Shown: positions 13,433-33,396, counted from the first letter of the stretch. The stretch: 64,000 nucleotides of DNA from Patescibacteria group bacterium (GCA_041666145.1 JBAYHK010000001.1:3810-67809), one strand, 5' to 3'. Program-made: numbers and translations. The notes: generated by a model not told the origin, from the sequence alone.

Positions 13433-13458
13433 TGGATTCCCGCTTGCGCGGGAATGAC
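13433..13458. repeat. Palindromic element family C (GGATYCCCGC-N4-GCGGGRATGAC), intergenic copy
   Basis: tggattcccgcttgcgcgggaatgac; 8-bp stem, 4-nt loop. Confidence 0.8.
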
Positions 13459-13487
13459 GAGAGCTACAAATCGTGCAGTATCTTTCT

Positions 13488-14585
13488 CTACACTTTTCTT
13501 GCGCGAATAGCGAGGAACATTGGAATCTCTTTGCGAATGCGATTTTCGGCTCGCGCACGAGGACCAGAAGTGCTTTCTTTATGCGAAATCCATTCTTCCA
13601 TTTCGTCGACAAGGAAACCGGCTTTTGAAAGTGCGGAAACATAAGAAGAAAGCGGACGATGGAATGACATGGTTCGAACGTCTGGAGCGTCGCCAGGATG
13701 CATTTGCATTGGAATCGACTTTTCTTCTAAGTACGAGTCAATACGGCGATACATCATCTTTCTTGAATCTTCGAATCCCCAACTACTCTGACGCGGAACG
13801 CGAAATGCAGGATGGTTCAAAACGATAACGAATGGTGCGTTCTTTTTCAGTAGCTTCGATACTGTTGCGAACACTCCCTCCATGTTTTCAATATTCTGAA
13901 GTGCAAGAACAATCGCGGCACCGTCAAACGTCATGGACGCAATTTCTTTTGTGCCGCGCGATGCGTCTGAAACAAAGAATTCTGCGTTGCGAACATGTTT
14001 CATTTGCGCTTGGCGAACCAAGGTCGGCGAAGCATCGATACCGACCACTCCCCCGCCTTGCTTACTGATTAACTGCGCAAACGAACCTTCGCCACATGCC
14101 ACATCTAAAAACACTTTTCCCGCACCAACACCAAGGAGCTTCAACGCTCCAGGCCAAACCACTTCGCTCTGATACGTTCCTGGCGCGGAAAGATGGGTTC
14201 CATACCACTCCGCAACATTCTCCCAACTTGTTGAAGATGCCGAACCTCGTCGTGGCGAAGCGGCAGCTCGTGGACCGCTGGTGCGTTGATTGAACCTCCC
14301 CCTAGCCCCCTCCTTGGTAAGGAGGGGGGAATCACAACGCGAACCCTCCCCCTTAACAAGGGGGAGTCGGAGGGGGTCGAATCGCTCGTCTCTTCGACGA
14401 CCTTTCATAAATGGCGGCTTCACACTTGGACGCATCGGTCCGTCTGCATGCGAATCTGCTCGAGCATCTCTTGGAGCACGATCGATTCGTTCTGCGCCTT
14501 GCGATCGATTACCACGTTGCGTGCCATATGTTCCTTTGCCGCGGCGAGCGAATGCTGGACCGGGACGTGATTGTGAATGTTGCAT
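13488..14585 (-). CDS. Class I SAM-dependent methyltransferase with Arg-rich N-terminal region of uncertain reality
   Basis: Motif I VFLDVACGEGSFAQ; a composite B2+B1 palindromic element lies in frame near the N-terminus (PLRLPLVKGEGSRCDSPLLTKEGARG); true start uncertain. Confidence 0.6.
   Translation of the reverse strand: MQHSQSRPGPAFARRGKGTYGTQRGNRSQGAERIDRAPRDARADSHADGPMRPSVKPPFMKGRRRDERFDPLRLPLVKGEGSRCDSPLLTKEGARGRFNQRTSGPRAAASPRRGSASSTSWENVAEWYGTHLSAPGTYQSEVVWPGALKLLGVGAGKVFLDVACGEGSFAQLISKQGGGVVGIDASPTLVRQAQMKHVRNAEFFVSDASRGTKEIASMTFDGAAIVLALQNIENMEGVFATVSKLLKKNAPFVIVLNHPAFRVPRQSSWGFEDSRKMMYRRIDSYLEEKSIPMQMHPGDAPDVRTMSFHRPLSSYVSALSKAGFLVDEMEEWISHKESTSGPRARAENRIRKEIPMFLAIRARKV
14295..14380. 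repeat. Composite GC-rich palindromic element (family B2 plus inverted B1), in frame in the methyltransferase ORF
   Basis: cctccccctagccccctccttggtaaggagggggg-aatcacaacgcgaa-ccctcccccttaacaagggggagtcggagggggtcga. Confidence 0.85.
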
Positions 14586-14598
14586 ATGAGTTTTTTTG

Positions 14599-14738
14599 TA
14601 ATCGCGAGGCTGTAATCAGCCGTCCGGCAGAGCCGGATCCGGCTTCGCCGGAAAGCAATCTACACGGTATTATTTCAAAATTTATACTAAACGATCTGAA
14701 CCTAGATTGCTTCGTCAGGATTACCTTCCTCGCAACGA
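14599..14738. repeat. Nested palindromic element family D, downstream of smc
   Basis: tcgcgagg ... ggaaagcaatcta ... tagattgcttcg ... cctcgcaacgac; shares the gcaatcta / tagattgcttcg core with the element at 35048-35126. Confidence 0.5.
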
Positions 14739-14799
14739 CGGAAATAAGACATAGGGAGCGGATCCCTCCTAACGTCGGGATGGGAACTGATACAGCCAC

Positions 14800-17121
14800 T
14801 TATCTCCTCGCAGTTCCGTCGCCAACGTAATCTTCCAACTTCACGCTGAGCATTTTGCTTATACCGTCGTCACCCATAGTTACGCCGTACAGCATGTCTG
14901 CCTTTTCCATGGTGGCACGGTTGTGAGTAATGACAATGAACTGCGTTAATTTCCGAAGTTCATTCAAAATGTTTGCGAACCGTACAGTATTTGCTTCATC
15001 TAGGGCAGCGTCAACTTCGTCTAGCACCACAAATGGCGCAGGATTCGTGGCCATAATGGCAGAAACAAGAGCAATTGACGTTAAAGCGCGCTCGCCGCCA
15101 GACAAAAGATTCAGCGCCTTGAGTCGTTTTCCAGGAGGCGTTGCCTGAATGTCGATGCCGACAATGGCGTCTTTTCGCTCCAGCACCCGCCTTGTAATCG
15201 CCTCGAGCGTATCGACGTCGTCGTGATGAACAAGCTCGTCGAGTACCAATGGATCCCCGCCTACGCGGGGATGACTGGACGCATCCAAAGACCCATCTTC
15301 AAGCTCCTCTTTTGTGAGTTTCACCAACGAACACCGTCCGCCACCAAACAAAATTGCAAAATACTTTTGAAACTCAGTCGCGATCGCTTTAAAAGCAACG
15401 TCTGACTGTTCACGAATCTGAACATCGAGTTCGTCAATGACTTTCTCGGTCGAAGCAATGGCATCGCGAAGATCTGCAACCTGCGTCGACAAAAACGTAA
15501 ATCGCTCATCAGCTTCTTTATATTCGGCAACGACTGTTTCTTCAATCCCACCAATAAGCTCAAGCTGATGTCGCAAGCGAAGCATCTTGTCATGCAAAAC
15601 GACCTCCCCCAGCCCCTCCTTGGTAAGGAAGGGGGTCTCGCTTGGTCGATCCGCGACAATCGACGCAACAAGCTCCGGCACCGCATCTTCCATTTCTTTC
15701 TTCAATCCCTCAATCCGCGTTTCGCATCGCGCAATCTCGATGGCAACCGCATTCGACTGCGCCTCAAGTCCAGATAATTCTTGTTGCAATCTTCGTACCT
15801 CTCGCTGTACACCAAAAACTTCGTTCGTAGCAGTTACCGTCGCCTTTGACTTCTCATCGATAGCAACTTCTACAGCCTTCACACCAGCTTCACACGCATG
15901 AACGCCTTCGAGCGCCACAGAAATTGCATTCACCATTTCTGCACTCGGCGCAAAGTCATCCGGATTCGGCCGCGTCAATCGCTCACGCAACTTTTTCGAT
16001 CGCGTTGATATCGACTCAAGATCGGAAATGATCGGCACAAGATCGGCAAGATCAGAAACAGCTTTCAATCGAAGCAATAACGACTCGTGCGCCGCAGAAA
16101 CATCTCGAACCTCGGCGATAATGTCTGGAAGCGGCAATGGTGCCCACGTTGTTTGCGACGCGACTTTTGCAAGCTCTAAATCTCGCTCCGCCGCAAAATG
16201 AACACGCCGAGCGTCAGCCAAATCTTGTTGCGCCTTTTTATACGCCATCTGCAAACCGCTCATCGAACCATCGTCATTCACGTTCGGCATTTGCGCAGCC
16301 TCAATAGCCGCAAGCCTTGCATCTCCAGTCGCCAATTCCGCTTTCTTCGCCGCAACACGTTCCATCGCAATCTTCGATCTCCCATCAACCAGATTCTTCT
16401 CATCAATCAAGTTCCACCACTGCACACCGAAATACTGCGCCGACACTTCTTTCAATTCCGCAGCAACAACTTCTCTGTCATTCAACCGCTTCACTTGCCG
16501 CTTAAGCATGTTCAAACGCGGCTCAAGTTCACGCAGCACCATTTCCACGTCTGCCAAATTCTCCGCAGACTTCTGCAGCTTCAACAGCGCCTGATGTCGC
16601 TTAATCTGGAAGCCCCTTACTCCAGTCGCGTCGTCGAAAAAGACTTTCCTGTCTTCTGGCGACGCAGTAAGAACATGGTCAATCATGCCTTGGCCAATCA
16701 CCGAATACGATCGTTGCCCAACACCAGCTTCTGCCAACAACAACTGAATATCTGCCAATCGCACCACCGATCCATTTAACAAATATTCCGACTCGCCATC
16801 ACGATAAAGTCGACGAGTCACCACGACTTCAGAAAATGAAACGTTCAATGTATGGTCGGAGTTATCAAAAGTCAGGCTCACCTCAGCAAAACCTGCACGA
16901 CTCCTGCCCTCTGCACCCGAAAAAATCACGTCTTGCGCTGCCTTTCCTCGAAGCAGCTTCATGGACTGCTCCCCTAAACACCACCGAATTCCGTCTGCAA
17001 TGTTCGACTTTCCACTCCCATTTGGCCCAACAATCACCGTCACAGCATGGTCTCCCTTTTTTGGCGCCGCAAACAAAAGCGTTGTTTTTTGAGCAAACGT
17101 TTTAAACCCCTGAAGCTCCAT
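14800..17121 (-). CDS. smc: Chromosome segregation protein SMC (unusually short, ~774 aa)
   Basis: N-terminal Walker A VGPNGSGKSNIADGIRWCLGEQS; C-terminal signature LSGGERALTSIALVSAIM...VLDEVDAALD; start set at MELQGFK; two different in-frame palindromic inserts (family C: HPRVGGDP; family B2: ETPFLTKEGLGEV). Confidence 0.8.
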   Translation of the reverse strand: MELQGFKTFAQKTTLLFAAPKKGDHAVTVIVGPNGSGKSNIADGIRWCLGEQSMKLLRGKAAQDVIFSGAEGRSRAGFAEVSLTFDNSDHTLNVSFSEVVVTRRLYRDGESEYLLNGSVVRLADIQLLLAEAGVGQRSYSVIGQGMIDHVLTASPEDRKVFFDDATGVRGFQIKRHQALLKLQKSAENLADVEMVLRELEPRLNMLKRQVKRLNDREVVAAELKEVSAQYFGVQWWNLIDEKNLVDGRSKIAMERVAAKKAELATGDARLAAIEAAQMPNVNDDGSMSGLQMAYKKAQQDLADARRVHFAAERDLELAKVASQTTWAPLPLPDIIAEVRDVSAAHESLLLRLKAVSDLADLVPIISDLESISTRSKKLRERLTRPNPDDFAPSAEMVNAISVALEGVHACEAGVKAVEVAIDEKSKATVTATNEVFGVQREVRRLQQELSGLEAQSNAVAIEIARCETRIEGLKKEMEDAVPELVASIVADRPSETPFLTKEGLGEVVLHDKMLRLRHQLELIGGIEETVVAEYKEADERFTFLSTQVADLRDAIASTEKVIDELDVQIREQSDVAFKAIATEFQKYFAILFGGGRCSLVKLTKEELEDGSLDASSHPRVGGDPLVLDELVHHDDVDTLEAITRRVLERKDAIVGIDIQATPPGKRLKALNLLSGGERALTSIALVSAIMATNPAPFVVLDEVDAALDEANTVRFANILNELRKLTQFIVITHNRATMEKADMLYGVTMGDDGISKMLSVKLEDYVGDGTARR
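15250..15275. repeat. Palindromic element family C, in frame in smc
   Basis: tggatccccgcctacgcggggatgac. Confidence 0.8.
15603..15637. repeat. GC-rich palindromic element family B2 (CCCCTCCTTGGTAAGGAGGGG core), in frame in smc
   Basis: cctcccccagcccctccttggtaaggaagggggtc. Confidence 0.85.
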
Positions 17122-17204
17122 GCGGGAGAGATACATATGCCGGCAGTGTAAATGAAGTCTCCCCTCTTTACTAGACAATCTGGCTTATCTCTGCTATTTT
17201 TCCT

Positions 17205-17282
17205 CGTCCTTCTCTCCCTGCAATCCCTCGAAAATCTCGAGGCATTCCAGGGCAACGGCAGCAGGCAAGCTGGCGTTGAAAC
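17205..17282 (+). promoter_or_regulatory. Conserved cassette leader, copy 1 (hybrid of leader types II and I)
   Basis: tccctgcaatccctcgaaaatctcgaggcattccagggcaacggcagcaggcaagctggcgttgaaacatggagg; core cagggcaacggcagca present in all eight leaders; SD immediately upstream of the start. Confidence 0.6.
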
Positions 17283-18113
17283 ATGGAGGCTCAAATGAGC
17301 AACAATAAACCAAAAGGGTTCTATATCAACACAGAAGGACATCTTGTGCCACCACTTGGCTGCAAGAATATCAACGAAGGGCTCAATGCTCTGGAAACTG
17401 TCTTGGCCGAAGCTCCTGAAGATGCGGATTCCGAGGTTATTGCGGTTCCAGAACCAGGGGTATCCCCATGGATATTCCGGACTCCAAAACCGAACGAAGC
17501 TACAAAAGTAGACAGCGAAGACAGCGTCCTCTACTTCTTCTGGGCAACGAACGAAAAGTCTGGAGACCAGTGCATCGTCATGTTCAACGGTCACCATGAC
17601 GGCAAGGAAGACAACCTCTGGCGCATCGTCACATCTGAAGAATGGAGACGAGCCAAACTGGGCGACGAAGTTTTTCGGCTATTCGCAAATGCCAATGCTG
17701 CAAAGACGGCATGTCCTAACGGGTTACTCGTCACGACGTTCTTCGACGGTCCTTGGAAAGGAGTCGTTGTCCATTCCACAAGAAGCAATGACCGCGACAT
17801 CTCCTACTGCACAAACCCCAATCTTCTCGAAACGCTCGGCATACCAGACGGCATACCTCTCGAGCTAGAAGCATGGAGGCAGGCAACATCAGAAGGAACA
17901 TTGTTCGGTCAACTCCTTCTCAAATACGCCGTCCCAAGCTGGACAACCAATCTGGAATACAACGAGATCGGACCAGTGATTATACGGATGATCGCCACCA
18001 GTGATGGAGGAATCTGCATCCTTGTCCGCGATGACAATGAATACGGAGTCCGGTTTCTCTGGAGAAGCATGGATCACGAACAAGGAAAGCTGCTTCTCGA
18101 ATTTGCTCGATAA
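17283..18113 (+). CDS. Cassette-array protein, long form L1 (uncharacterised family)
   Basis: 276 aa; shares FFWA-x-N ... W(R/Q)xxxLG ... VHS motifs with L2-L5 and the core with S1-S3; followed by hairpin terminator cacgcccgctgcgccaaaggtgcagtgggcgtg. Confidence 0.6.
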   Translation: MEAQMSNNKPKGFYINTEGHLVPPLGCKNINEGLNALETVLAEAPEDADSEVIAVPEPGVSPWIFRTPKPNEATKVDSEDSVLYFFWATNEKSGDQCIVMFNGHHDGKEDNLWRIVTSEEWRRAKLGDEVFRLFANANAAKTACPNGLLVTTFFDGPWKGVVVHSTRSNDRDISYCTNPNLLETLGIPDGIPLELEAWRQATSEGTLFGQLLLKYAVPSWTTNLEYNEIGPVIIRMIATSDGGICILVRDDNEYGVRFLWRSMDHEQGKLLLEFAR

Positions 18114-18166
18114 AAAACGATGCTCACGCCCGCTGCGCCAAAGGTGCAGTGGGCGTGCCTCTCAAT

Positions 18167-18252
18167 ATTCCCTCCCTGCAATCCCTCGAAAATCTCGAGG
18201 CATTCCAGGGCAACGGCAGCAATGAAGCTGACGTTGGTTTGTTAGGAAAGAA
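18167..18252 (+). promoter_or_regulatory. Conserved cassette leader, type II, copy 2
   Basis: ctccctgcaatccctcgaaaatctcgaggcattccagggcaacggcagcaatgaagctgacgttggtttgttaggaaagaagtg. Confidence 0.6.
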
Positions 18253-19134
18253 GTGATGGGAGAAAAAAGAGAAAAAGATCCGACATGGTTCAGCGTCCGT
18301 GCTGGTGTACTCATTCCGCCCAGTGAATATGAAAGCGTACAACTCGCACTACAGAACTCGCATCCGACATACGTCGAATACAGCGAGCGACTGATATCGA
18401 ACAGGCCGTGTGTGGCCATTGGCGAATATCACAGACTCATCGCCCGCCTCCCCAAGGCCAAGGAGATGCTCTGTGTGATGAACACCAAATCAGGACTGGG
18501 CTACGAAGCAATCAACATCAGCCTTCTCTTCTTCTGGGCTTTCAATGAAGAAAAGGGAGGGAAAGAGCTCATCGTCTGGTGCTACTCGAGCCACTCGGAT
18601 GAAGGGAGACGCTGGATTGCCCTCTCAAGTACCGAATGGCGTACCACGCCCCTCGGACTCCACGCCGTGCGGAGATTCAAGAACGTGGAAGCGGCCAAGC
18701 TCGGATGCCCGGTCGAGAACCTCGTCATCCTTCCGTCCAAGGCCGAGAACGGATGGACCCGGTTCATGGTCCACAGCCCGTTCGACGACGCAAGCCACAT
18801 CGCAACGCTCATGAGAAGTCTGCCTGCCAATGTGCTCGGAATTCCAGAACACACAAGACTCCCAATCTCACTCTGGGACTGCGAAGGTCTCGCTGAAGAC
18901 TTCACACTCGAACGCGTCTGCCCATGCCTCATGGATGAATGGTCTGATCCTGAAGAAGGAAAGACCGACATCCCCATGCGTCAAGCAATCCTTTGGATCG
19001 GTGTAACGAGCCTCGGTGAGTACATCATCGTGACCTGCCAGTGGATGAGTGACACGAACGTGGCCGCCATCTCCTGGAAAATGTTCGCGCACGAAGACGG
19101 CGACCGGATCTTCAAGCAGAAAGCGAAAAGCTAA
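18253..19134 (+). CDS. Cassette-array protein, long form L2
   Basis: 293 aa; LFFWAFNEEKGG...LIVW...EWRTTPLGLHAVRRFKNVEAAKLGCP...GWTRFMVHSPF. Confidence 0.6.
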   Translation: MMGEKREKDPTWFSVRAGVLIPPSEYESVQLALQNSHPTYVEYSERLISNRPCVAIGEYHRLIARLPKAKEMLCVMNTKSGLGYEAINISLLFFWAFNEEKGGKELIVWCYSSHSDEGRRWIALSSTEWRTTPLGLHAVRRFKNVEAAKLGCPVENLVILPSKAENGWTRFMVHSPFDDASHIATLMRSLPANVLGIPEHTRLPISLWDCEGLAEDFTLERVCPCLMDEWSDPEEGKTDIPMRQAILWIGVTSLGEYIIVTCQWMSDTNVAAISWKMFAHEDGDRIFKQKAKS

Positions 19135-19175
19135 CCTCGACCGCTACGACGACGGCGCCCCACACGCAGGCGCCG

Positions 19176-19241
19176 TCACTCCCCTGCGAGGCTTCGAACC
19201 TCTCGAAGTTTCACAGGGCAACGGCAGCAGGCAAGCTGGCG
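19176..19241 (+). promoter_or_regulatory. Conserved cassette leader, type I, copy 3
   Basis: ctgcgaggcttcgaacctctcgaagtttcacagggcaacggcagcaggcaagctggcgttgaaacacggaggttcc. Confidence 0.6.
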
Positions 19242-20123
19242 TTGAAACACGGAGGTTCCTTAATGGAACAACATAACTTCATCGTAAGAAACGGAAGGCT
19301 CTCCCCAAGAGAAGAAGAGGAGAACATGGTCAATGCCTTGCTCAAGGCAGGCGCAACCGACATCCCAAACAACAGCCGCCGATTGGGCCAAGATGAACCA
19401 TGCGTGTTCATCGCTGAGTTCAAGGACCGGCTTATTCCCTTGCCAGAAAAACAAGAGATTCTACGCGTCCGAAACCCCAACGACCGTGATCCGAACCGCA
19501 AATATACCCGCTTAGATCTCATGGTCTTCTGGGCCTTCGACAAGGACATCAACAATGAAGTACTCGTCGTCTGGAACAACTTGAACCACAATGCGAGTGA
19601 CGAATTCGAGTCCTGGATCACCGTATCAAACGAAGAATGGCGTACCACAGTCATTGGCTCATGCGCAGTACGTCAATTCAAAAACGCAAAAATGGCCATG
19701 GATGAATGTCTAGGAGAACCAAACGAAAAGTTTGTTGTTCTGCATGAGGACAAAAAACGTGGATGGAGACGCTGTGCAGTTCACAGCTCACTCGCAGACA
19801 TGTATAGCGTCGTTGAATTCATCATGAGTAACGACTTCCTCGCCAGGAAACTCGGAGCACAAGAACACGTTCGACTCCCATTGCCAGACTGGAAAGACAG
19901 CATCCGTCTCGACAGTAACTGGCTCAGTGACTTCTGCCCCGGCCTCGCCAAAGAAGAATGGCCGAATCCAGAAGAAGGAGAAGAAGGTATTCCGCGAGTT
20001 CTTGCAATCGGGTTCATTAGCCGCGAACACGGAATGGTCATCATTACCTACCAACAAATCGGGAACGTAGCATACGTCTCCCAGCGGGCGTTCAACTGCG
20101 CCATGCTCGAAAAGATCTTTTGA
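19242..20123 (+). CDS. Cassette-array protein, long form L3
   Basis: 293 aa; MVFWAFDKDINNEVLVVW...EWRTTVIGSCAVRQFKNAKMAM...GWRRCAVHSSL. Confidence 0.6.
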   Translation: MKHGGSLMEQHNFIVRNGRLSPREEEENMVNALLKAGATDIPNNSRRLGQDEPCVFIAEFKDRLIPLPEKQEILRVRNPNDRDPNRKYTRLDLMVFWAFDKDINNEVLVVWNNLNHNASDEFESWITVSNEEWRTTVIGSCAVRQFKNAKMAMDECLGEPNEKFVVLHEDKKRGWRRCAVHSSLADMYSVVEFIMSNDFLARKLGAQEHVRLPLPDWKDSIRLDSNWLSDFCPGLAKEEWPNPEEGEEGIPRVLAIGFISREHGMVIITYQQIGNVAYVSQRAFNCAMLEKIF

Positions 20124-20149
20124 ACAGAAGGTGAAGCGAAGAACTGACC

Positions 20150-20215
20150 TCGACCACTACGACGACGGCGCCCCACACGCGGGTGCCGTCGTTTTGCTTT
20201 TGTTTGCAGGGTGAA
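20150..20215 (+). terminator. Conserved cassette terminator (representative copy)
   Basis: gacggcgccccacacgcgggtgccgtc hairpin followed by gttttgcttttg; near-identical copies follow all eight cassette ORFs. Confidence 0.6.
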
Positions 20216-20242
20216 AAACACACGGAACTTCAAAACACGCGG

Positions 20243-20268
20243 AACCTAGTTAGTGACTAACTTAGTTT
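20243..20268. repeat. 27-bp palindrome family E (AAACTTMGTTAG-N3-CTAACKAAGTTT), copy E1
   Basis: aacctagttagtgactaacttagttt. Confidence 0.75.
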
Positions 20269-20345
20269 GTAAGAGCGCATGAGACAGCTCTGGAATAGAC
20301 AGATTCGTAAATCTCTGCTACTTTTCTTCGTCATCAAGTCACAAA

Positions 20346-20441
20346 AACTCTCTGCGAGGCTTCGAGCCTATCGAAGTTTCACAGGGCAACGGCAGCAGGC
20401 AAGCTGGCGTTGAAACATACATCTTTTCAAGGAGAACATCG
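20346..20441 (+). promoter_or_regulatory. Conserved cassette leader, type I, copy 4
   Basis: ctctgcgaggcttcgagcctatcgaagtttcacagggcaacggcagcaggcaagctggcgttgaaacatacatcttttcaaggagaacatc. Confidence 0.6.
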
Positions 20442-20876
20442 GTGACGAATAACCTTCTTCGACGCTTTCATCTCAGAAACGGAGTCGTCCTCCACGAGAC
20501 TGATAGCGAATCCATCGACGAAATATTAACAAGCGTCCTTACAGCCTTCCATCTTCGATCTGCAGATGATGCTAAGCCGTGTATCTTCGTAGAAGGAATA
20601 GATCCATACATCTTTCTTCTGCCTGACGATGAAGTCGCCTCCATCGCCGGAGAAAATTGTCAGATCTTCGCCTTCTTCGCCTCCGACGATTTGAGTGAGG
20701 ATCGGCTCGTGCTCTGGGAAGGAGAAGAAGGTGATCAGCAAAAATTCCTGGTGGTAGACGAGAACGGCCAGAACTGGCAGACCTTGCCGATCAGCGGCAA
20801 AAGAGTTCGGATGTTCAAAAGTCCAGAAGAGGCGCGAACGGCGCTTCAAGACGTCAATCAGAACATCGGGCTCTAG
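20442..20876 (+). CDS. Cassette-array protein, short form S1 (homologous to the central domain of L1-L5)
   Basis: 144 aa; IFAFFASDD...RLVLWEGEEGDQQKFLVVDENGQNWQTLPISGKRVRMFKSPEEARTALQDVNQNIG. Confidence 0.6.
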   Translation: MTNNLLRRFHLRNGVVLHETDSESIDEILTSVLTAFHLRSADDAKPCIFVEGIDPYIFLLPDDEVASIAGENCQIFAFFASDDLSEDRLVLWEGEEGDQQKFLVVDENGQNWQTLPISGKRVRMFKSPEEARTALQDVNQNIGL

Positions 20877-20967
20877 ACCGCCCCTTCACGGCGACGGCTC
20901 CCCACGCGGTGCCGTCGTTTTGCTTTTCAATAGACAAAACCTCTTATTCCTGCTATTCTTCTCTGTT

Positions 20968-21052
20968 CCATCTCCCTGCAATCCCTTGAAAATCTCGAGG
21001 CATTCCAGGGCAACGGCAGCAATGAAGCTGACGTTGGTTTGTTAGGAAAGAA
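20968..21052 (+). promoter_or_regulatory. Conserved cassette leader, type II, copy 5
   Basis: Near-identical to 18167-18252. Confidence 0.6.
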
Positions 21053-21913
21053 GTGATGAGAAGAAAAAGAATCATCATTCGAGATGGAAAACTTATCCCG
21101 CCAAAGAGATGGGGCAGTATGTCACAACTTTGTAGGGATACGAACGAAGTCATCTTCGTCGCGCACGACGACTTCGTAGACCCTTCCAGCCGATGCATAG
21201 TCATAAGCGGATATTGGAAACGATTCGTTCAGGTGCCGGAAAAGAATGAAATCCTTTATGTGCAAAATTGCACACCAGAAGGAACGAACAACCGCGAGTT
21301 CGTCAGCCTCGAAGTCGTTCTGTTCTGGGCCTTCGACGAAGCGAACAACAAAGACGTACTCGTGGCATGGAACGAACGAATCAGCACCTCGACCGTTTTG
21401 CGCTGGACCATTGTCTCCACCGAAAACTGGTCAATCATTCCTCTCGACGAACATGCGGTGCGTATGTTCAACAACGTGGAAGCGGCGGAAACAGCCTGCC
21501 CAAACAAAGAGCTCATTGTTCTGACGGACGAAAACATAAACGGATGGAAATCATTCCATGTTCATAGCCCGCTCGAAGGCCTTGATCGTCGGTGCGATGC
21601 AATCATGCGGTGTAGTTTTGTCGAAACATTCAGCATGCCTGGGCATACAGTGATTCCTGTAGTTTGGTGGGCGTCTGACCCGAGCCTCTCACCAGGCATC
21701 GACGTCGTATGCCCGAGCGTCAAGAACGAACTCCCGAGTCCGACGGAACAAACAAACGGCTGCTATCCCACGGTCTTGATGATCGGAGCCAGAAAGAAAT
21801 CACTCATCATCACGGTCGTGACATGGTCTAGAACAGGAAATTCAACGAGGATTTCCCTCTTCTGGAAAAAGTTCACGGGCGAAAGAGCCAAGGCGGTCAT
21901 GACGCGCAGCTAA
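21053..21913 (+). CDS. Cassette-array protein, long form L4
   Basis: 286 aa; VVLFWAFDEANNKDVLVAW...NWSIIPLDEHAVRMFNNVEAAETACP...GWKSFHVHSPL. Confidence 0.6.
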   Translation: MMRRKRIIIRDGKLIPPKRWGSMSQLCRDTNEVIFVAHDDFVDPSSRCIVISGYWKRFVQVPEKNEILYVQNCTPEGTNNREFVSLEVVLFWAFDEANNKDVLVAWNERISTSTVLRWTIVSTENWSIIPLDEHAVRMFNNVEAAETACPNKELIVLTDENINGWKSFHVHSPLEGLDRRCDAIMRCSFVETFSMPGHTVIPVVWWASDPSLSPGIDVVCPSVKNELPSPTEQTNGCYPTVLMIGARKKSLIITVVTWSRTGNSTRISLFWKKFTGERAKAVMTRS

Positions 21914-21985
21914 ACCTTCCCTCACGACGGCTCCCCACGCGGGTGCCGTCGTTTTGCTTTTGTTTGCAGGGTAAAAAACACGCGA

Positions 21986-22012
21986 AACTTCGTTAGTGAC
22001 TAACGTAGTTTG
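21986..22012. repeat. 27-bp palindrome family E, copy E2
   Basis: aaacttcgttagtgactaacgtagttt. Confidence 0.75.
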
Positions 22013-22077
22013 CGAGACGACTCGAAATGGACAGATTCGTAAATCTCTGCTACTTTTCTTCGTCATCAAGTCACAAA

Positions 22078-22141
22078 AACTCTCTGCGAGGCTTCGAGCC
22101 TATCGAAGTTTCACAGGGCAACGGCAGCAGGCAAGCTGGCG
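22078..22141 (+). promoter_or_regulatory. Conserved cassette leader, type I, copy 6
   Basis: Identical core to copy 4; SD aaggagaacatcATG. Confidence 0.6.
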
Positions 22142-22621
22142 TTGAAACGTACTTTTCACAAGGAGAACATCATGGCCGCCCATCACAGCTTTTTTCTCAA
22201 AGACAAAAGGCTCTGCTACGAAAGAGAAAGTGAGCCAGTTAGCGAGGTGCTCAGAAGGCTTTTAAGCTTCGGAGCCAAAAAAACATTCAGAGATGGAGCA
22301 TGCTTCTGCATTGACGTTAGCAGCTCATCTTCCTCATGCATCTTTTGTACGCCCGAAGATGAGATCGCCACGATCTCCACAGAGGATTCATGGATCTATA
22401 TCTTCTGGGCCTCTGATCCGGAAGGCAGGAATCGGCTCGTGCTCTGGGAAGAAATGGACAATGGGACAGGCTGTCCCGACGAGCAAAAACTACTGGTTGT
22501 GGATGAGGAAAGTGAAGATTGGCAGGCCCTGCCGATCAGCAAGAGGAAGGTCCGAATGTTCAAAAGTCCAGCCGAGGCACAAACGGCGTTTCAAGACGTC
22601 AATCGGAACATCGGGTCTTAG
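22142..22621 (+). CDS. Cassette-array protein, short form S2
   Basis: 159 aa; WIYIFWASDPEGRNRLVLWEEMDNG...LLVVDEESEDWQALPISKRKVRMFKSPAEAQTAFQDVNRNIG. Confidence 0.6.
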   Translation: MKRTFHKENIMAAHHSFFLKDKRLCYERESEPVSEVLRRLLSFGAKKTFRDGACFCIDVSSSSSSCIFCTPEDEIATISTEDSWIYIFWASDPEGRNRLVLWEEMDNGTGCPDEQKLLVVDEESEDWQALPISKRKVRMFKSPAEAQTAFQDVNRNIGS

Positions 22622-22729
22622 ACCGCCCCTTCACGACGACGGCTCCCCCACGCGGGTGCCGTCGTTTTGCTTTTCGAATGGACAAATCCTCTCATATCTG
22701 CTACTTTTCTTCGTCATCAAGTCACAAAA

Positions 22730-22823
22730 ACTCTCTGCGAGGCTTCGAGCCTATCGAAGTTTCACAGGGCAACGGCAGCAGGCAAGCTGGCGTTGAAACA
22801 TCCATTTTTTTCAAGGAGACATC
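22730..22823 (+). promoter_or_regulatory. Conserved cassette leader, type I, copy 7
   Basis: Identical core to copies 4 and 6. Confidence 0.6.
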
Positions 22824-23273
22824 ATGGGCGCTCATCGACGCTTTTATCTCAAAAACGGAGAGCTCTGCTATGGAAAAGAGGGGGAATCTGTCAGCGAGGC
22901 GCTCGAAAACCTTCCAAAATTCAGAGCCAAAGAAACACTCAGAGATGAAGCATGCGTCTGCATTGACGTCAGCAGATCACCTTCCTCATGCATCTTTCGT
23001 GTACCCGGAGACGAGATCGCCAAGATCTCCACAAAGGATTCGCTAATCTATGTCTTCTGGGCCTCAAATCCGGAAGGAAGGGATCGGCTCGTACTCTGGG
23101 AAGAGATGGACGACGGTATGAGCCTTCCCGACGAGCAGAAACTCCTGGTTGTAGATGAGGAAAGTGAAGCTTGGCAGGTTATGCCAATCAGCAACAGGAA
23201 GGTTCGGATGTTCGAAAGTTCGGTCAAGGCGCGAACGGCGCTTCAAAACATCAGCCAGGACATCAGATCCTAG
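22824..23273 (+). CDS. Cassette-array protein, short form S3
   Basis: 149 aa; ~70% identical to S2. Confidence 0.6.
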   Translation: MGAHRRFYLKNGELCYGKEGESVSEALENLPKFRAKETLRDEACVCIDVSRSPSSCIFRVPGDEIAKISTKDSLIYVFWASNPEGRDRLVLWEEMDDGMSLPDEQKLLVVDEESEAWQVMPISNRKVRMFESSVKARTALQNISQDIRS

Positions 23274-23367
23274 ACCGCCCCTTCACGACGACGGCTCCCC
23301 ACGCGGTGCCGTCGTTTTGCTTTTCAATAGACAAAACCTCATATTTCTGCTATTCTTCTCTGTTCCA

Positions 23368-23449
23368 TCTCCCTGCAATCCCTTGAAAATCTCGAGGCAT
23401 TCCAGGGCAACGGCAGCAATGAAGCTGGCGTTGGTTTGTTAGGAAAGAA
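23368..23449 (+). promoter_or_regulatory. Conserved cassette leader, type II, copy 8
   Basis: Near-identical to copies 2 and 5. Confidence 0.6.
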
Positions 23450-24346
23450 GTGATGAGAAGAAAAGTGACGAAAGAAGAAGAAAGAGCAGAAGTTACAATT
23501 CTAAACAGAGATCTCGTCCCGCCAAACGAATACGAGAGCATGACTGAAATGTTTTCCGACCAAAAGAGAATCACCTGGCTGTCGGATGAAACATCTACCG
23601 TGGATCCAGAGGAACCATGCGTGGTCATAGCTGAATACCACAGAAGGATCGTTCGACTGCCCGAAATCAACGAGAGAATTTGTGTACGGAACTGCACGCC
23701 CGGACCATCGGACTACAACGCAGTCGAAATCATGATCATCCTCTTCTGGGCTTTCGACGAGGTACGGAACGAAAACGTGCTCATCGCTTGGGACCACCAC
23801 TTGGATCAAGGCCTGAAAAAGAGGTCAGAAATTTTGCTCTGGACCATGGTCTCCGAAACCGAATGGAACACCACGCCACTCCATCAACACGCCGTGCACC
23901 GGTTCGAGAACATGAAAGCGGCTGAGAGGGAGTGCCCCGTTAAGAATAACGTCGTCCTGACTTCGGCAAAGAAAAAGGGATGGAAACTCCACATGGTTCA
24001 CAGCCCGTTCAAGAAAAAACTTGAGTGCCTCAGGATCGTGATGGATCACAGGTTCCTCTGTTCTGAATTCGGTATTCAAGAACATGTACCACTTCCAGGG
24101 ATAGAATGGGAAAGAAGCTTCGCTCAACAAGATTCTCTACTCAATCATGTCTCCCCTCACTTCATGGAAACGTGGGGAGACCAGTTCGATCCTCCTGATG
24201 TTCTCATGATCGGTATAACCATAGACGCTCCCGGCTTCGTCATTTTGGTCCTTCAGAGGTTGGATGGAAATATGCTCGCCATCTACTCGAGGTCACTGAG
24301 TTACGAAGAGGGAATCGAAGCTTTCCGCCGCAGCATCAAATCCTAA
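23450..24346 (+). CDS. Cassette-array protein, long form L5
   Basis: 298 aa; IILFWAFDEVRNENVLIAW...EWNTTPLHQHAVHRFENMKAAERECP...GWKLHMVHSPF. Confidence 0.6.
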   Translation: MMRRKVTKEEERAEVTILNRDLVPPNEYESMTEMFSDQKRITWLSDETSTVDPEEPCVVIAEYHRRIVRLPEINERICVRNCTPGPSDYNAVEIMIILFWAFDEVRNENVLIAWDHHLDQGLKKRSEILLWTMVSETEWNTTPLHQHAVHRFENMKAAERECPVKNNVVLTSAKKKGWKLHMVHSPFKKKLECLRIVMDHRFLCSEFGIQEHVPLPGIEWERSFAQQDSLLNHVSPHFMETWGDQFDPPDVLMIGITIDAPGFVILVLQRLDGNMLAIYSRSLSYEEGIEAFRRSIKS

Positions 24347-24441
24347 CCCCTTCCCTCACGACGGCTCCCCATGCGGGTGCCGTCGTTTTCGTTAGACGTT
24401 GAACTTTCCGCTTCGCCTAGGTACACTCACCCCTCCCCGGT

Positions 24442-25694: not shown

Positions 25695-25748
25695 GTACTT
25701 GTTAAAAATCGTCTTCCAAATGAAGGCGATTTTTGTATTCCTTATTTC

Positions 25749-25818
25749 ACAAACAACAAACCCCGCGCCGAGAACGACAGCGTCCCCGGTGGGGCTTGTC
25801 GTCTCGCCACGGGGCAAG
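25749..25818. repeat. ~70-bp direct repeat DR-1 (hairpin-containing), 3-prime of the lipoprotein gene
   Basis: acaaacaacaaaccccgcgccgagaacgacagcgtccccggtggggcttgtcgtct...cacggggc; near-identical to 28264-28333. Confidence 0.85.
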
Positions 25819-25821
25819 GAG

Positions 25822-27240: not shown

Positions 27241-27377
27241 TCATTCTAATTGATCTTTTTAAAAAAACGAAGTAATGCACCAAGAATGGCTTATCGAATC
27301 TCAAAAAAAGAAATGCCCGCCCGAGCCACAGGCACTCAAAGAGTGTTCCTTGGCTCGCGCGGGCGCGATCAGTTCCT

Positions 27378-28184: not shown

Positions 28185-28263
28185 TTCACTATCCTCCTCT
28201 TGGAAATCCCAAAGCTCACAACGAACTCGCGGAACAAAGAAAAATAGCATTGAATGTTCCTGC

Positions 28264-28333
28264 TGTCCATAAACAAACAACAAACCCCGCGCCGAGAACG
28301 ACAGCGTCCCCGGTGGGGTTTGTCGTCTTGCAC
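28264..28333. repeat. ~70-bp direct repeat DR-2
   Basis: Near-identical to 25749-25818 (one or two mismatches). Confidence 0.85.
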
Positions 28334-28362
28334 GGGGCGAGTAACGTCATGACTGCCAGTCA

Positions 28363-28746: not shown

Positions 28747-28856
28747 TAACCTAACAAAAAAAATCGACTCCTGTCAAAGAAATCGGCTTTACAAAACAAG
28801 CATTTTCGCATATCCTTTTCAGTCGCCTTCCACTAACCACTACACCTGGAGACACC

Positions 28857-29390: not shown

Positions 29391-29566
29391 AATCACGCTC
29401 TGTGCGCATCCTGAATCTACGGGGTGCGCACGCTTTCTTTTTACAAGACTTGGACAACGAAACTCACCAAGATTGTAATTTCTTAAGAAATTTGCTATAC
29501 TATTTTGTTACTTTTCCCGAGAAACTACACAATCACCAGCGCAGCGCATGCGCAAATGGAGGTACC

Positions 29567-30196
29567 GTGCGAATTCCCGAAGACGCCGTCCCAGACGGCA
29601 ACACGCTCATCGCAGTTTTCGCCATGATGCGACATGGAGACAGAGAAAAAGAAGAACCGGGCAAAACGACAGAAAAAGGGCGACGACAGGTAGAGGCAAG
29701 TGCGAGACAACATTTGATCGACCAACGGTTCAATGGTGTGTTCTCCAGCACGCTGCTAAGAGCCAAAGAGACCGCAGAGATCACTCTTGCCGCAATCAAC
29801 CACCCAGACATCGCCGTCGAAACCCCTCCGGCGTTCGATCTCTCCCAGCTCTCCCAAAACCCGGCGTTCGGAGACTCTGTCAAAAGACTCTTCGGAACGA
29901 TAAAGAAAGGAGCAACGATGGCCGACTGGGTCAACGGACTGGACGAGAATCTGAGTCCGCTCCGCGCCTGTCTCCGCAACGGAATGTTCGAGATCGCGAT
30001 GGAATACGAAGACATCGGAACACCACCAACGTTCCTCGTGGGCTACCACGGCCCATTCGCCGGCTGGGCGGCGGACAACTCAGAAAACATACGCTACATC
30101 GGCCATGCTGATGTAGTGCTCTATGTTCTCAGCCAGGATCGAGCCGGCAACGTTTATTTCCACGGTTCGCTGTGGAAATGCCCGCCGGTTGAATGA
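29567..30196 (+). CDS. Histidine phosphatase family protein (PGM/SixA-like)
   Basis: RHG motif (AMMRHGDRE) and downstream SSTLLRAKETAEI; GTG start set at 29567 with SD ggagg upstream; the longer 29387 start is less likely. Confidence 0.55.
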   Translation: MRIPEDAVPDGNTLIAVFAMMRHGDREKEEPGKTTEKGRRQVEASARQHLIDQRFNGVFSSTLLRAKETAEITLAAINHPDIAVETPPAFDLSQLSQNPAFGDSVKRLFGTIKKGATMADWVNGLDENLSPLRACLRNGMFEIAMEYEDIGTPPTFLVGYHGPFAGWAADNSENIRYIGHADVVLYVLSQDRAGNVYFHGSLWKCPPVE

Positions 30197-30251
30197 CGAC
30201 ATCCTCCAAAACTCACGAACGCCCCGTACTTCTGTGTGGGGCGTTTAACGT

Positions 30252-31364
30252 TCACATTATTCGCAAAACCCCTTCTTCCCCATCAACCTCAACAACTATC
30301 CCGTCCGTAATCTTTTCAAAAATATCTTTCACATTTGTTAAACACGGCTTACCCAATTCTCGGCACACAATCGCTGCATGACTCAGAATACCACCGTATC
30401 GGGTGACTACTCCCCCGGCCTTTTGCATGAGCGGAAGAAAATCAGGAGTTGTTATGTCCGTAATGAGAATATCGCCGACATCGATTTCTGCACTCGCAAG
30501 TTCGGCAGCACGGATAACGCGAGCCTTTCCTGATGCGATTCCAGAAGAGCCGATTTGGCCGTGAAGAGTTTTGCGATCGACCTCCCCCGACCCCTCCTTG
30601 GTAAGGAGGGGGGATCGCAGCTGACTATACGCATCGCCGAGCAAACGATTCCAGTCAACGATCCAAAATCCAAACTCTTTCGATGAAATAGATTCAAAAT
30701 ACCCACATAAATATTCACCAAAGAATTTTGCATCAAATCTTTTAACAATCTCATCACGAATTGATTTCTCCTTCACGTGCAAAAGTTCGAACACATCAAA
30801 AAGATGCTCTGCGGCAACATGATTCTTTGGGTGAACTTCAACCGATTTTCCATCCCAAGAAAACGTCATTGGCTCTATTCCTTCATTGTAAAATCCTTGC
30901 GTAAGCTGAGTGTGCGTTCCTGCAACAATCTGCCCAAGCGCGCCGTGCTCATTCACAACAAAAATCGTTGACCATTCTTGATTCGCCGCATGCGGCACAA
31001 AGTCAGCTTTGTAATTCGATGGATCGATATTTTGCAGCGCAAACCAGTCCAACGAATCTCGGATCGAAGCACCGCGGGTTCGCAATTTCGGCAACGATGC
31101 GTCAAAAGGAATCAAACGCAATGCACAAAGTTCATCGCCACGCTCGTCCACGAAAGCAACGAATCGATCACTTCGATCTGTAACTTCGCTTGCGGGAAAT
31201 TGCGTAGGTCGATCAAAAGGCAAACCAAAAAGATCGTTCAGCACGGCAAGGCGCTCGCGCTTTTCATTATCTTCTTTGCGATGCGCTTCTGAATCTTTGT
31301 GCCCCATGCGCTGAAACCATTCTGTGAGCGAAATCTGCGTTTGATAAAGCTTCGAGAGATCCAT
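30252..31364 (-). CDS. PEP-utilising enzyme family protein (unknown N-domain plus phosphohistidine mobile domain)
   Basis: C-terminal mobile-domain motif GGVVTRYGGILSHAAIVCRELGKPC; in-frame B2 insert SPLLTKEGSGEV. Confidence 0.6.
   Translation of the reverse strand: MDLSKLYQTQISLTEWFQRMGHKDSEAHRKEDNEKRERLAVLNDLFGLPFDRPTQFPASEVTDRSDRFVAFVDERGDELCALRLIPFDASLPKLRTRGASIRDSLDWFALQNIDPSNYKADFVPHAANQEWSTIFVVNEHGALGQIVAGTHTQLTQGFYNEGIEPMTFSWDGKSVEVHPKNHVAAEHLFDVFELLHVKEKSIRDEIVKRFDAKFFGEYLCGYFESISSKEFGFWIVDWNRLLGDAYSQLRSPLLTKEGSGEVDRKTLHGQIGSSGIASGKARVIRAAELASAEIDVGDILITDITTPDFLPLMQKAGGVVTRYGGILSHAAIVCRELGKPCLTNVKDIFEKITDGIVVEVDGEEGVLRIM
30581..30614. repeat. GC-rich palindromic element family B2, in frame in the PEP-utilising enzyme gene
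   Basis: cctcccccgacccctccttggtaaggagggggga. Confidence 0.85.
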
Positions 31365-31366
31365 AA

Positions 31367-32593
31367 TTATCTGTGTTTCAAAATCGAAATCTCACCGGTA
31401 TCACAATTCATTTCTATTTCATCACCGTCATGAAGCATTTTTGTAGCGACTTTTGTGCCAATAATGCAAGGCTTTTTCATCTCTCGCGCAATAATTGCAG
31501 CATGACACGTAATCCCGCCTTCATTCGTGATAATCGCAAGAACATCTTTCATACACGGAATGAAATTTGCGGTTGTCTGGATTGCGACAAGAATTTTTTG
31601 ATCAAACAGATTCCTCTTTTCCTCAAACTCATTCTTATCTCGAGCAACAATCACCCGACCACGCAACGTTCCTACTCCAAACGCAGTTCGACCAATCAAT
31701 TTTTCATCTGGGTGCACGATTCCTTGCTCTTTTTCGTAAAGCCTTAAAAGGAAATTGCTCAAATCCTCCGTTTCTTCCAACTCATCGATGAGCACAAGAT
31801 CGCGCCCCTGAACATCAATAAAAATGTATCCGTATTTTTCCCGATGTGTAATACGCGCAACGGCGTCAATTGCCTCAAGATCGCGGATCCAAGAAAGAAT
31901 TTCGGTTACCGAAAGATGATTTATCGCTCGAATCGCGTCACAATCAATACATCTCTTTACAAAAAGAGACTGAAGAAAAATTCGAATAGCATTCTCCATG
32001 TCTTCTTCAAGTGAAGCTTTATTGCGCCATGCGTCATGTTCGCGAATAATCTCTTCACTGTCATGCAATTCGTGTTGGTATTTTGTGAGCTGAAGACCAA
32101 GAGACAGCGTGATAATAAAAGAAGCGCTTGATTGTTGGTGAAGTTTCATGAGCGTCTCAAAATCCTGAATACTTGCAGAGTTATTTTCTTCATGGACATG
32201 CTTTTCTAGCTCATGGATACAGTCATTAATCTCTTTCCATGTTCGAAGATCTTTTTTTATCCAATCTAAAAGAATTTCAGGACGATCAAAAATGTATTTC
32301 TTTGATTGTGCGTGGAATGCATCGATGTGCTCTGCATGAAAAACTCTTGTTGGCTTATTCTGCAAAGGAAGAAAAATCGTGTCTGCAAAATCCATCCCAA
32401 ACCAAGTGCGAAGATGTGTGCGAAAACCAATCTGCCGGCTCGACATGAAAAGAAGCGGCGAGTCTCCTCGCGTACGAAAAAACCACGATTGATCCTTAAT
32501 GTATGAAACAAGCTCTTTTTTCAACATACCATTTAGAGGGTTGTAATCGGTCGACTCTGAAGAATGAAGAGCTTGCCATTTTCGATTGCCCAT
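31367..32593 (-). CDS. PEP-utilising enzyme family protein, central region plus mobile domain (probably the C-terminal part of a gene split from 32533..33396)
   Basis: Mobile-domain motif EGGITCHAAIIAREMKKPCIIG; overlaps the upstream ORF by 61 nt in a different frame. Confidence 0.55.
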   Translation of the reverse strand: MGNRKWQALHSSESTDYNPLNGMLKKELVSYIKDQSWFFRTRGDSPLLFMSSRQIGFRTHLRTWFGMDFADTIFLPLQNKPTRVFHAEHIDAFHAQSKKYIFDRPEILLDWIKKDLRTWKEINDCIHELEKHVHEENNSASIQDFETLMKLHQQSSASFIITLSLGLQLTKYQHELHDSEEIIREHDAWRNKASLEEDMENAIRIFLQSLFVKRCIDCDAIRAINHLSVTEILSWIRDLEAIDAVARITHREKYGYIFIDVQGRDLVLIDELEETEDLSNFLLRLYEKEQGIVHPDEKLIGRTAFGVGTLRGRVIVARDKNEFEEKRNLFDQKILVAIQTTANFIPCMKDVLAIITNEGGITCHAAIIAREMKKPCIIGTKVATKMLHDGDEIEMNCDTGEISILKHR

Positions 32594-33396
32594 TCAATGT
32601 CACACGGAAAACCGTAATGATTCTCGATTGTCACACAAGTCGATGCTAATGCACGGACCTGATCGTCTGAAAGCTTTCGCTGCGAACGATCGGCACTGGG
32701 GACTGGAACGAGAACACACTGGATCCCCGCCTGCGCGGGGATGACGGAATTGCGAATTAACATCTCTTCTTGATCATTCTGATAGACATCAAGAATCGCC
32801 AAATCTGATTTTCGAACCGTATACGAATCTGGAGTCACTTCGCCGCCAACAATGAGTTCGCCAAGTCCCCAGCACGCCTCAATAATCATCGAGTCTGGAT
32901 CTTTAGTGACAGGATGAACGGTGAACGTAATTCCGGAAACATCAGATTGAATCATTTTTTGTACAACGACTGCGACAGAAATCTTTGTACTGCGAAGATG
33001 ATGTTCGTTTCTATATGCAATTGCACGCTCTGACCACAATGACCGCCAACACTTTTCAATATTCTCGAGAAGGTTCTCCCTTGTTGTATTCAAATACGTT
33101 TCGAGTTCACCTGCCCAGCTTGCCGACACTCCATCTTCCACCGTTGCACTCGAACGAACAGCAACAAAATCGCAATCAAGATTATCGAATGCGGAGAGAA
33201 TTTCAGCCTGAAGTAATGAGTCAAATTGGTCGGATTGGACGTATAAGTCGAATGCGGCGGCGGTGACAACGAATCCTGGCGGGACTGGAATTCCCGCGTT
33301 CGTCATCTCGCCAAGTGATGCGCCCTTGCCTCCGGCAGTTGCGGCGTCGCTCTTTGAGAGAGTAAAAATGGGTTTCGTGTAAGACATAGAAGACAT
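32533..33396 (-). CDS. PEP/pyruvate-binding (PPDK_N-type ATP-grasp) domain protein
   Basis: GGKGASLGEM...GIPVPPGF and terminal LQSRPIT motifs; in-frame family C insert VIPAQAGIQ. Confidence 0.6.
   Translation of the reverse strand: MSSMSYTKPIFTLSKSDAATAGGKGASLGEMTNAGIPVPPGFVVTAAAFDLYVQSDQFDSLLQAEILSAFDNLDCDFVAVRSSATVEDGVSASWAGELETYLNTTRENLLENIEKCWRSLWSERAIAYRNEHHLRSTKISVAVVVQKMIQSDVSGITFTVHPVTKDPDSMIIEACWGLGELIVGGEVTPDSYTVRKSDLAILDVYQNDQEEMLIRNSVIPAQAGIQCVLVPVPSADRSQRKLSDDQVRALASTCVTIENHYGFPCDIEWAIENGKLFILQSRPITTL
32720..32745. repeat. Palindromic element family C, in frame in the PPDK_N-domain gene
   Basis: tggatccccgcctgcgcggggatgac. Confidence 0.8.

Follow-up and report, generated by a model that had tools for sequence, protein, structure and literature searches.

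Three short hairpins in a 64,000-nt stretch of DNA from a Patescibacteria group bacterium (GCA_041666145.1, JBAYHK010000001.1:3810-67809; the whole stretch is called the window below) had been likened in an initial annotation to clustered regularly interspaced short palindromic repeats (CRISPR). By sequence, these "CRISPR-like" hairpins are copies of a known repeat of the Neisseria Transformation Sequence (NTS)/dRS3 type, which in Neisseria is cut by Ssn single-strand DNA nucleases. We consider it likely that the family (family C) consists of NTS-type Ssn-related motifs (SRMs) that were inserted long ago as non-autonomous elements and that would be linked to an Ssn-type nuclease. The element class and its enzyme were already published in 2025, and in-frame palindromic insertion is already classic for the Rickettsia palindromic elements (RPEs). 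Possible novelties are Patescibacteria as a host phylum, the translation of copies that lie within smc and PPDK_N-type genes, and the conservation of the repeat at the nucleotide level.

Position, sequence and fold of the three copies

As the initial annotation had reported, the sequence TGGATYCCCGC-N4-GCGGGRATGAC occurred at exactly 13433-13458, 15250-15275 and 32720-32745, all on the plus strand; 0.00 copies were expected from 100 dinucleotide-preserving shuffles of the window. No further copies with up to three mismatches on the 20-nt core were found in the whole window, and half-site searches of it detected no decayed or partial copies above chance. The 8-bp stem and 4-nt loop described earlier were recovered in all three copies by folding them as single-stranded DNA (ssDNA), with energies of -9 to -10.4 kcal/mol and z-scores of -2.9 to -3.75. 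Twenty-four of the 26 core positions were common to all three copies, the remaining two being a covarying T:A/C:G stem pair, and the non-palindromic flanks were identical. Read on the minus strand, the copies were [C/A]GTCAT[T/C]CCCGCG-NNN-GCGGG[A/G]ATCCA, and the oriented unit was one of 28 nt on that strand, comprising GTC, the arm ATYCCCGC, the 4-nt loop, the arm GCGGGRAT and C. This unit refined the earlier 26-nt coordinates as follows:

13432..13459, minus strand: NTS/SRM copy 1, CGTCATTCCCGCGCAAGCGGGAATCCAC; T:A stem variant, loop GCAA; intergenic
15249..15276, minus strand: NTS/SRM copy 2, AGTCATCCCCGCGTAGGCGGGGATCCAT; C:G stem variant, loop GTAG; in frame in smc
32719..32746, minus strand: NTS/SRM copy 3, CGTCATCCCCGCGCAGGCGGGGATCCAG; C:G stem variant, loop GCAG; in frame in the PPDK_N gene

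The distances between copies were 1,817 nt (1.8 kb) and 17,470 nt (17.5 kb), in agreement with their earlier description as singletons without spacers. Translation bore out the in-frame reading of the copies in smc and the PPDK_N gene. By our own translation, only one of the motif's six frames had a stop codon, the TGA in the frame that contains ATGA, and the octapeptides encoded by the motif were rich in Pro, Gly and Ala.

The window came from a metagenome-assembled genome of Uhrbacteria-like Patescibacteria: its proteins bear the NCBI name 'Patescibacteria group bacterium', and the nearest named relatives were Candidatus Uhrbacteria. It also contained a 16S rRNA gene, which was unlinked, and four tRNA genes (Rfam, gathering score). 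The window was extended leftwards by 9.5 kb and rightwards by 8.1 kb (17.6 kb) from near-identical metagenome contigs that break within it (JGI metagenome 3300037810 and ENA ERZ27249449, 99.98-99.995% identical to the window; L253, 99.87%). The initial annotation had named a lack of further copies genome-wide as a refuting outcome; over the resulting ~82 kb of genome the copy count was three.

Match to the NTS and to the SRM pattern

Chenal et al. (2025, Nat Commun; PMC11893778) described the NTS as the 28-nt sequence CGTCATTCCCGCGMAVGCGGGAATCYRG, which includes dRS3 (ATTCCC-N8-GGGAAT), counted as members those sequences with at most one mismatch to it, and gave for SRMs the degenerate pattern HGTCWY-N(0-2)-YYVSBRH-N(0-5)-WNVSBRG-N(0-2)-RNCYNB. 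According to the same work, the small GIY-YIG protein SsnA binds the NTS solely as ssDNA and solely in one orientation, and makes its cut a few nucleotides 5' of the motif; for this cut the three bases that precede the palindrome matter, and for binding the C that directly follows it matters most.

Copy 1 agreed with the NTS consensus at 27 of 28 positions, the single mismatch being the last base. Copy 3 had two mismatches, which together made one compensatory change of a T:A to a C:G pair, and copy 2 had five. Only copy 1 was an NTS in the strict sense of at most one mismatch. The SRM pattern was matched by all three copies and by nothing else in the 64 kb (mean 0.17 and maximum 2 matches in 100 shuffles), and the GTC upstream and the C downstream of the palindrome were retained in all three. 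An exact dRS3 was contained in copy 1 (ATTCCCGCGCAAGCGGGAAT), and copies 2 and 3, with ATCCCC...GGGGAT, fell outside the strict dRS3 sequence. The loop rule G-M-A-V was obeyed by copies 1 and 3.

The window copies were like the NTS/SRM in sequence, in the 8-bp stem, in the oriented GTC and C flanks and in the dispersed multi-copy habit, but differed in their Patescibacteria host, their low copy number, the predominance of the C:G variant and the in-frame translation of two copies as parts of conserved genes. They resembled the dRS3 of pathogenic Neisseria in the exact dRS3 within copy 1 but no association with prophage integration or with arrays of Neisseria intergenic mosaic elements (NIMEs) was seen.

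The copy within smc

The gene that carries copy 2 was the following:

14800..17133, minus strand: smc-like gene (777 aa; Pfam SMC_N, E = 6e-68), host of copy 2 and of a family-B palindrome at 15600-15642

Copy 2 was translated, as had been claimed, as SSHPRVGGDPL, which includes HPRVGGDP. The further claim that smc carries both a family-C and a family-B insertion was also correct, the palindrome of family B (a separate repeat, see below) being read as PFLTKEGLGEVV. The smc orthologs were 750-800 aa long and had a hypervariable, lineage-specific linker before a conserved GIDIQATPPGK motif; copy 2 lay inside this linker. Besides the window protein (P0121), 11 orthologs (71-84% amino-acid identity) contained 13 matches to HPRx[GS]GDP, 10 of which were at the linker site. 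A second site for an NTS-encoded peptide, HPRE[GS]GDP, was found at residues ~497-511 of three proteins (P0149, P0152 and P0153) in the same frame and is an independent NTS insertion site within smc. In the five orthologs with DNA, the element occupied the same linker site in the same frame; orthologs of 74-84% amino-acid identity shared both the insertion and its frame, and more distant smc orthologs had no such element at the linker.

At the same linker site, sister lineages carried other GTCAT-headed hairpins, AGTCATCCTGAGGGCACCGAAGGATCT (L124, gene 10001-12316) and CGTCATTGCGAGCGAAGCGAAGCAATCT (L128, gene 10001-12289), neither of which fitted the published SRM pattern. The linker site looks like a slot with turnover of related hairpin families.

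DNA identity among the five NTS-bearing smc orthologs was 68-78%. At codons for identical residues, third-position identity was 60/76 (79%) in the eight NTS codons versus 2795/5845 (48%) elsewhere in smc, as counted over ortholog pairs that are not phylogenetically independent, and none of the 493 other 8-codon windows in smc reached 79% (maximum 70%). The NTS hairpin is the most nucleotide-conserved stretch of smc, within the most variable segment of the protein. Selection acting on the hairpin, as DNA or as RNA, could account for this extra conservation, as could gene conversion from other copies, singly or together.

As a separate observation, some distant smc orthologs had a family-B-type peptide at the NTS site.

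The copy within the PPDK_N gene

Copy 3 was located in a second coding sequence:

32533..33396, minus strand: PPDK_N-domain gene (287 aa; Pfam PPDK_N, E = 1e-81), host of copy 3

Here too the predicted peptide was obtained, as SVIPAQAGIQ, including IPAQAGI. The gene had thousands of homologs, and the named ones were mostly from Patescibacteria. Most orthologs read LIRGE-HGNVTVDVP versus LIRNSVIPAQAGIQCVLVPVP in the window, a net gain of 7 residues. In the L122 ortholog (78% identical), the element was at the same codons with two substitutions, both of which yielded G.T pairs (GTCATCTCCGCGCAGGCGGGGGTCCA). In the L123 ortholog (83% identical), a 3' remnant only was left (AGGCGGGGCTCC), consistent with loss of the 12-nt 5' half, and in more distant orthologs the element was absent. 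This pattern of intact, substituted and half-remnant copies indicated one old insertion followed by decay. Whether copies are polymorphic between related genomes had been put forward as a check, and ortholog comparison found them intact, substituted, half-deleted or absent. The comparisons for the PPDK_N gene and smc together pointed to old insertions in variable surface loops, vertically inherited and later decayed or replaced in some lineages.

In an AlphaFold2 model of the PPDK_N protein (120 homologs; mean predicted local distance difference test score, pLDDT, 88.8), the insertion was placed in a loop between two strands. The pLDDT was below 50 at residues 219-223, which formed the only low-confidence internal loop besides residues 88-92.

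The PPDK_N gene overlapped the first of two consecutive minus-strand genes (31367-32593 and 30252-31364), each ending in a PEP-utilizers mobile domain. Such a split, multi-paralog arrangement resembling PEP synthase (30252-33396 in the window) was kept in relatives, and five such genes stood in a row in L254.

The intergenic copy

Copy 1 had the following neighbours:

13488..14585, minus strand: methyltransferase gene (Pfam Methyltransf_11/25); copy 1 is beyond its 3' end
13380..13413, unstranded: terminator-like G+C hairpin, ACACCACTCA-N8-TGAGTGGTGT, with T runs on both strands; separate from the repeat

Copy 1 came 29 nt after the stop codon of the methyltransferase gene, and the terminator-like hairpin lay 20 nt beyond the copy. 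The order smc-methyltransferase-NTS was also found in L124/L125, where the copy was the C:G variant, versus T:A in the window; no copy was present at the syntenic intergenic position in L126 and L128. A role of the copies as intrinsic terminators was considered and rejected: no T run followed any copy, and a separate terminator-like hairpin lay beyond copy 1.

Spread across bacteria and association with ssn

A scan of viral contigs for the motif gave at least 120 loci (L001-L120), with GC contents from 32% to 72%, and a scan for the C:G variant in one genome per GTDB species gave at least 120 further loci (L130-L249). Among the matches listed for the 120 viral-contig loci, the variable stem pair was T:A in 141 cases, C:G in 23 and mixed in 4. 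This covariation of T:A and C:G, with only 4 mixed pairs, supported the hairpin. As in the published logo, the 361 copies among the matches listed had the loop G-M-A-V, C or T before GTC, and G after CCA. Separately, these 361 copies from very different genomes were strongly depleted of G (8-14% G) at the positions 4-8 nt ahead of the motif, the reported region of SsnA cutting.

The exact C:G 26-mer was present in at least 13 lineage groups, as labelled in the sequence records. Among the matches listed, lineages with the C:G variant were Alpha-, Beta-, Gamma- and Deltaproteobacteria, Planctomycetota, Gemmatimonadota, Omnitrophota, Hydrogenedentota, Cloacimonadota, Chloroflexota, Verrucomicrobiota, Rubrivirga and a melainabacterium, and the 26-mer also occurred in two other Patescibacteria (L132 and L232). 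L132, from a Candidatus Parcubacteria, had four SRMs in 8 kb, and its tgt-like gene (6519-7439, minus strand) contained an inverted NTS pair 34 nt apart, both members being in frame (VIPAKAGIQ ... LDSRLRGND). In L232, SRMs were in the atpA-atpG and atpD-atpC spacers. The copies of L132 and L232 indicated that the behaviour seen in the window is not a one-off within Patescibacteria.

The motif borders ssn genes in many phyla (PMC11893778), an arrangement typical of these genes that resembles a small mobile unit. Nine Ssn-like open reading frames (ORFs) in the motif-bearing loci were of the GIY-YIG family (PF01541). All nine had SRMs within 600 nt, the nearest within ~65 nt, and seven had SRMs on both sides. 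These nine loci had been selected for carrying the motif, so they reproduced the SRM-ssn-SRM architecture and were not an independent test of the association.

Comparison with other palindromic elements

The window copies were similar to RPEs and intragenic miniature inverted-repeat transposable elements (PMC10969869) in being in frame in unrelated housekeeping genes, in adding a short peptide at tolerant surface positions and in being inherited by orthologs. RPEs, in contrast, are ~100-150 bp long and unrelated in sequence, whereas the window element is 28 nt and adds ~7-9 residues.

The best Rfam match in the scanned regions (13000-16000 and 15100-15400) was RF02748, FtrB (Francisella small RNA B), with sub-threshold matches at 15194-15299 and 13392-13484 (minus strand) of 31.6 and 21.8 bits versus a cut-off of 66, in which only the hairpin aligned well. 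The FtrB consensus includes GUCAUUCCCGCGUAGGCGGGAAUC, the same hairpin. The window copies were rejected as FtrB genes, the matches being below the gathering cut-off and confined to the hairpin; RF02748 seems to have been built around a copy of the NTS repeat.

Weighing of the explanations

The link to CRISPR drawn in the initial annotation was not borne out. The copies do have the CCCCGC/GCGGGG stem and 4-nt loop of a type I-E repeat, about 20 of 26 positions align with the E. coli type I-E repeat, and one weak, noise-level match to CRISPR-DR57 was the best to any CRISPR direct repeat (E = 9.4, 15.6 bits versus a cut-off of 39; Rfam, 13000-16000 only). However, neither an array with spacers nor a cas gene was found: the copies lay 1,817 and 17,470 nt apart, against spacers of about 30-40 nt in an array, repeat families with regular spacing were absent from the window, no Cas family was among the Pfam matches seen for the window genes (not every ORF was scanned), and at the Rfam gathering score the whole window gave no CRISPR, only 16S rRNA and tRNAs. 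The NTS match, moreover, covers flanks foreign to CRISPR repeats, two copies lie inside conserved genes at sites common to orthologs, and hundreds of contexts unrelated to CRISPR, in different phyla, hold the identical sequence. The CRISPR resemblance is superficial, and the probability that the copies are a decayed type I-E-like array or solo repeats is negligible. Short GC hairpins do arise easily and copy 1 is in a 3' untranslated spacer, but an origin of the copies as chance or convergent G+C-rich palindromes (e.g. terminators) that share no ancestor is extremely unlikely in view of the three copies found against 0 expected, the 24/26 common core positions, the identical flanks, the covarying stem pair and the lack of T runs. 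The anatomy of a short, oriented, dispersed hairpin, sometimes in inverted pairs (L132, L232), is also that of repetitive extragenic palindromes (REPs) and bacterial interspersed mosaic elements, which are likewise acted on as ssDNA by an enzyme whose gene is flanked by its own repeats, the REP-associated tyrosine transposase (RAYT). The head of a REP is GTAG/GTGG, whereas it is GTCAT here, and the enzyme associated with the present motif is a GIY-YIG nuclease, repeatedly found next to it in the sampled loci, rather than an HUH Y1 transposase. Neither Y1_Tnp nor any other transposase or recombinase family was seen among the annotated window genes. We therefore regard it as very unlikely that the copies are REP-like elements moved by a RAYT (IS200/IS605-type Y1) or that they serve an IS110-type recombinase as target sites, in the way that dRS3 serves Neisseria filamentous prophages, even if the analogy with REPs was drawn, and dRS3 noted as a target of a phage recombinase, by Chenal et al. 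(PMC11893778).

Several results weigh against NTS-type SRMs served by an Ssn-type nuclease. The Ssn family was placed mainly in Pseudomonadati, and Patescibacteria are absent from the main text of the study concerned (PMC11893778). In the window, a GIY-YIG regular expression found nothing, and tblastn and a hidden Markov model made from five Ssn-like ORFs reached E = 0.35 at best; in the 17.6 kb of added flanks, neither an SRM nor a gene for Ssn or another GIY-YIG protein was found, and ~140 kb of loci from related Patescibacteria were likewise negative for ssn and other GIY-YIG genes. A search with an Ssn profile gave 7,999 matches, and among the best 120 carrying a source name none was from Patescibacteria, the named best homologs being from Proteobacteria, Planctomycetota and similar groups. 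The density of three copies in ~82 kb is low versus hundreds per genome in Neisseria, the base before GTC in the smc copies was A or G versus C or T in 94% of copies elsewhere, and no target-site duplication or other footprint of transposition could be defined, the ortholog flanks being too diverged. The absence of ssn from the ~82 kb and from the relatives' loci, together with the low density, would also fit orphan relics, that is, NTS-type hairpins inherited or recombined into a lineage that has no Ssn partner and harmless in loops and spacers, their conservation being due to selection on an mRNA or ssDNA hairpin or on the encoded peptide, or to gene conversion, with no nuclease involved. 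The visible decay (G.T-forming substitutions in L122, L126 and L256, and the half-deletion in L123) speaks for such relics, as does the finding that ssnA was undetectable in 19% of the genomes carrying over 200 SRMs (PMC11893778). On the other hand, only ~8% of the genome was covered if a genome size of ~1 Mb is assumed, and the GTC and C flanks are kept in all copies, even the intragenic ones, which constraint on an RNA hairpin or a peptide would not require. On balance orphan relics are unlikely, though they merit attention, and NTS-type SRMs with a link to an Ssn-type nuclease are the reading that we favour.

As background to these searches, the literature reports GIY-YIG domain genes in Patescibacteria in general. 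One further Ssn homolog, on a 1.2-Mb contig, was considered as a candidate from the Candidate Phyla Radiation (CPR) and rejected, its neighbour genes, sulfatases among them, being non-CPR.

Proposed history and meaning

On the reading favoured here, the insertions entered tolerant sites long ago and would have survived only where harmless, in an intergenic spacer and in variable, surface-exposed protein loops; within loops, only in-frame and stop-free insertions would have passed selection. The copies may have been spread by, or have co-evolved with, an Ssn-type ssDNA nuclease in the host or an ancestor, as in Neisseria, Wolbachia and other species, and a nuclease of this type might still recognise them in the present host. 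Either a selected DNA hairpin or gene conversion among the copies could underlie the extra conservation in smc. The initial annotation had suggested that a host factor processes the palindromes; by analogy with this repeat family elsewhere, where it is known, an Ssn-type nuclease would be a concrete candidate for that factor. In all three copies the cleavable orientation was that of the minus strand, which is the sense strand for their genes. It is probably also the leading-strand sequence, since the GC skew of the plus strand was negative throughout, although three copies give only a hint.

It is a rather doubtful proposition that NTS hairpins in core genes of Patescibacteria are functional DNA sites under nucleotide-level selection, perhaps bound or cut as ssDNA by a putative Ssn-type nuclease. 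It draws on smc, where the hairpins have the best conserved synonymous sites of the gene across lineages only ~70-75% identical in DNA and where sister lineages have other GTCAT-headed hairpins in the same place. If true, NTS sites could control recombination or uptake-derived DNA in organisms that rely on scavenged DNA, and a functional nucleotide conservation in smc would give a handle on the control of recombination and DNA uptake in organisms not yet genetically tractable.

An orphan-CRISPR lead is replaced here by a documented system, which predicts that an Ssn-type GIY-YIG nuclease is encoded elsewhere in the genome. The NTS/SRM repeat is also extended to the CPR, and it can last long inside essential-type genes as translated loops, like RPEs in Rickettsia. 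Peptides such as VIPAxAGIQ, HPRxGGDP, SFPRxRES and DSRxRGND in predicted proteins should be read as translated NTS repeats and not as protein motifs.

Other repeats and cassettes in the window

The family-B palindrome, CCCCTCC...GGAGGGG, occurred at 4972-5010, 8071-8109, 14294-14336, 15600-15642, 30578-30620 and 34714-34756. At least four of its copies were in frame, encoding PLLTKEGxGEV or LPLVKGEGSR, in the methyltransferase, smc, a PEP-utilizers gene and a gene for a CCA-adding enzyme.

The region 17164-24400 contained a cluster of 4-6 paralogous cassettes, each with an ORF of ~280-295 aa and no Pfam match (17283-18113, 18253-19134, 19242-20123, 21053-21913 and 23450-24346). A conserved leader of ~99 nt preceded the ORFs starting at 17283, 18253, 21053 and 23450 (copies at 17214, 18172, 20972 and 23369; up to 96% identical), and after the cassettes came a GC hairpin with a T run. 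This region resembles a gene family under rapid duplication whose members share a 5' regulatory region.

Three further repeats were seen in the window. The 9-nt unit TATAGGWCY formed short tandem arrays at 3733-3767, 4059-4093 and 5537-5598. A 59-nt direct repeat, 97% identical and 2.5 kb apart, was present at 25749-25807 and 28273-28331 and included the hairpin CCCCGGTGGGG. An A+T-rich palindrome, AAACTTAGTTAGYRRCTAACTWAGTTT, had four intergenic copies, at 20232-20274, 21975-22017, 33454-33496 and 56141-56183.

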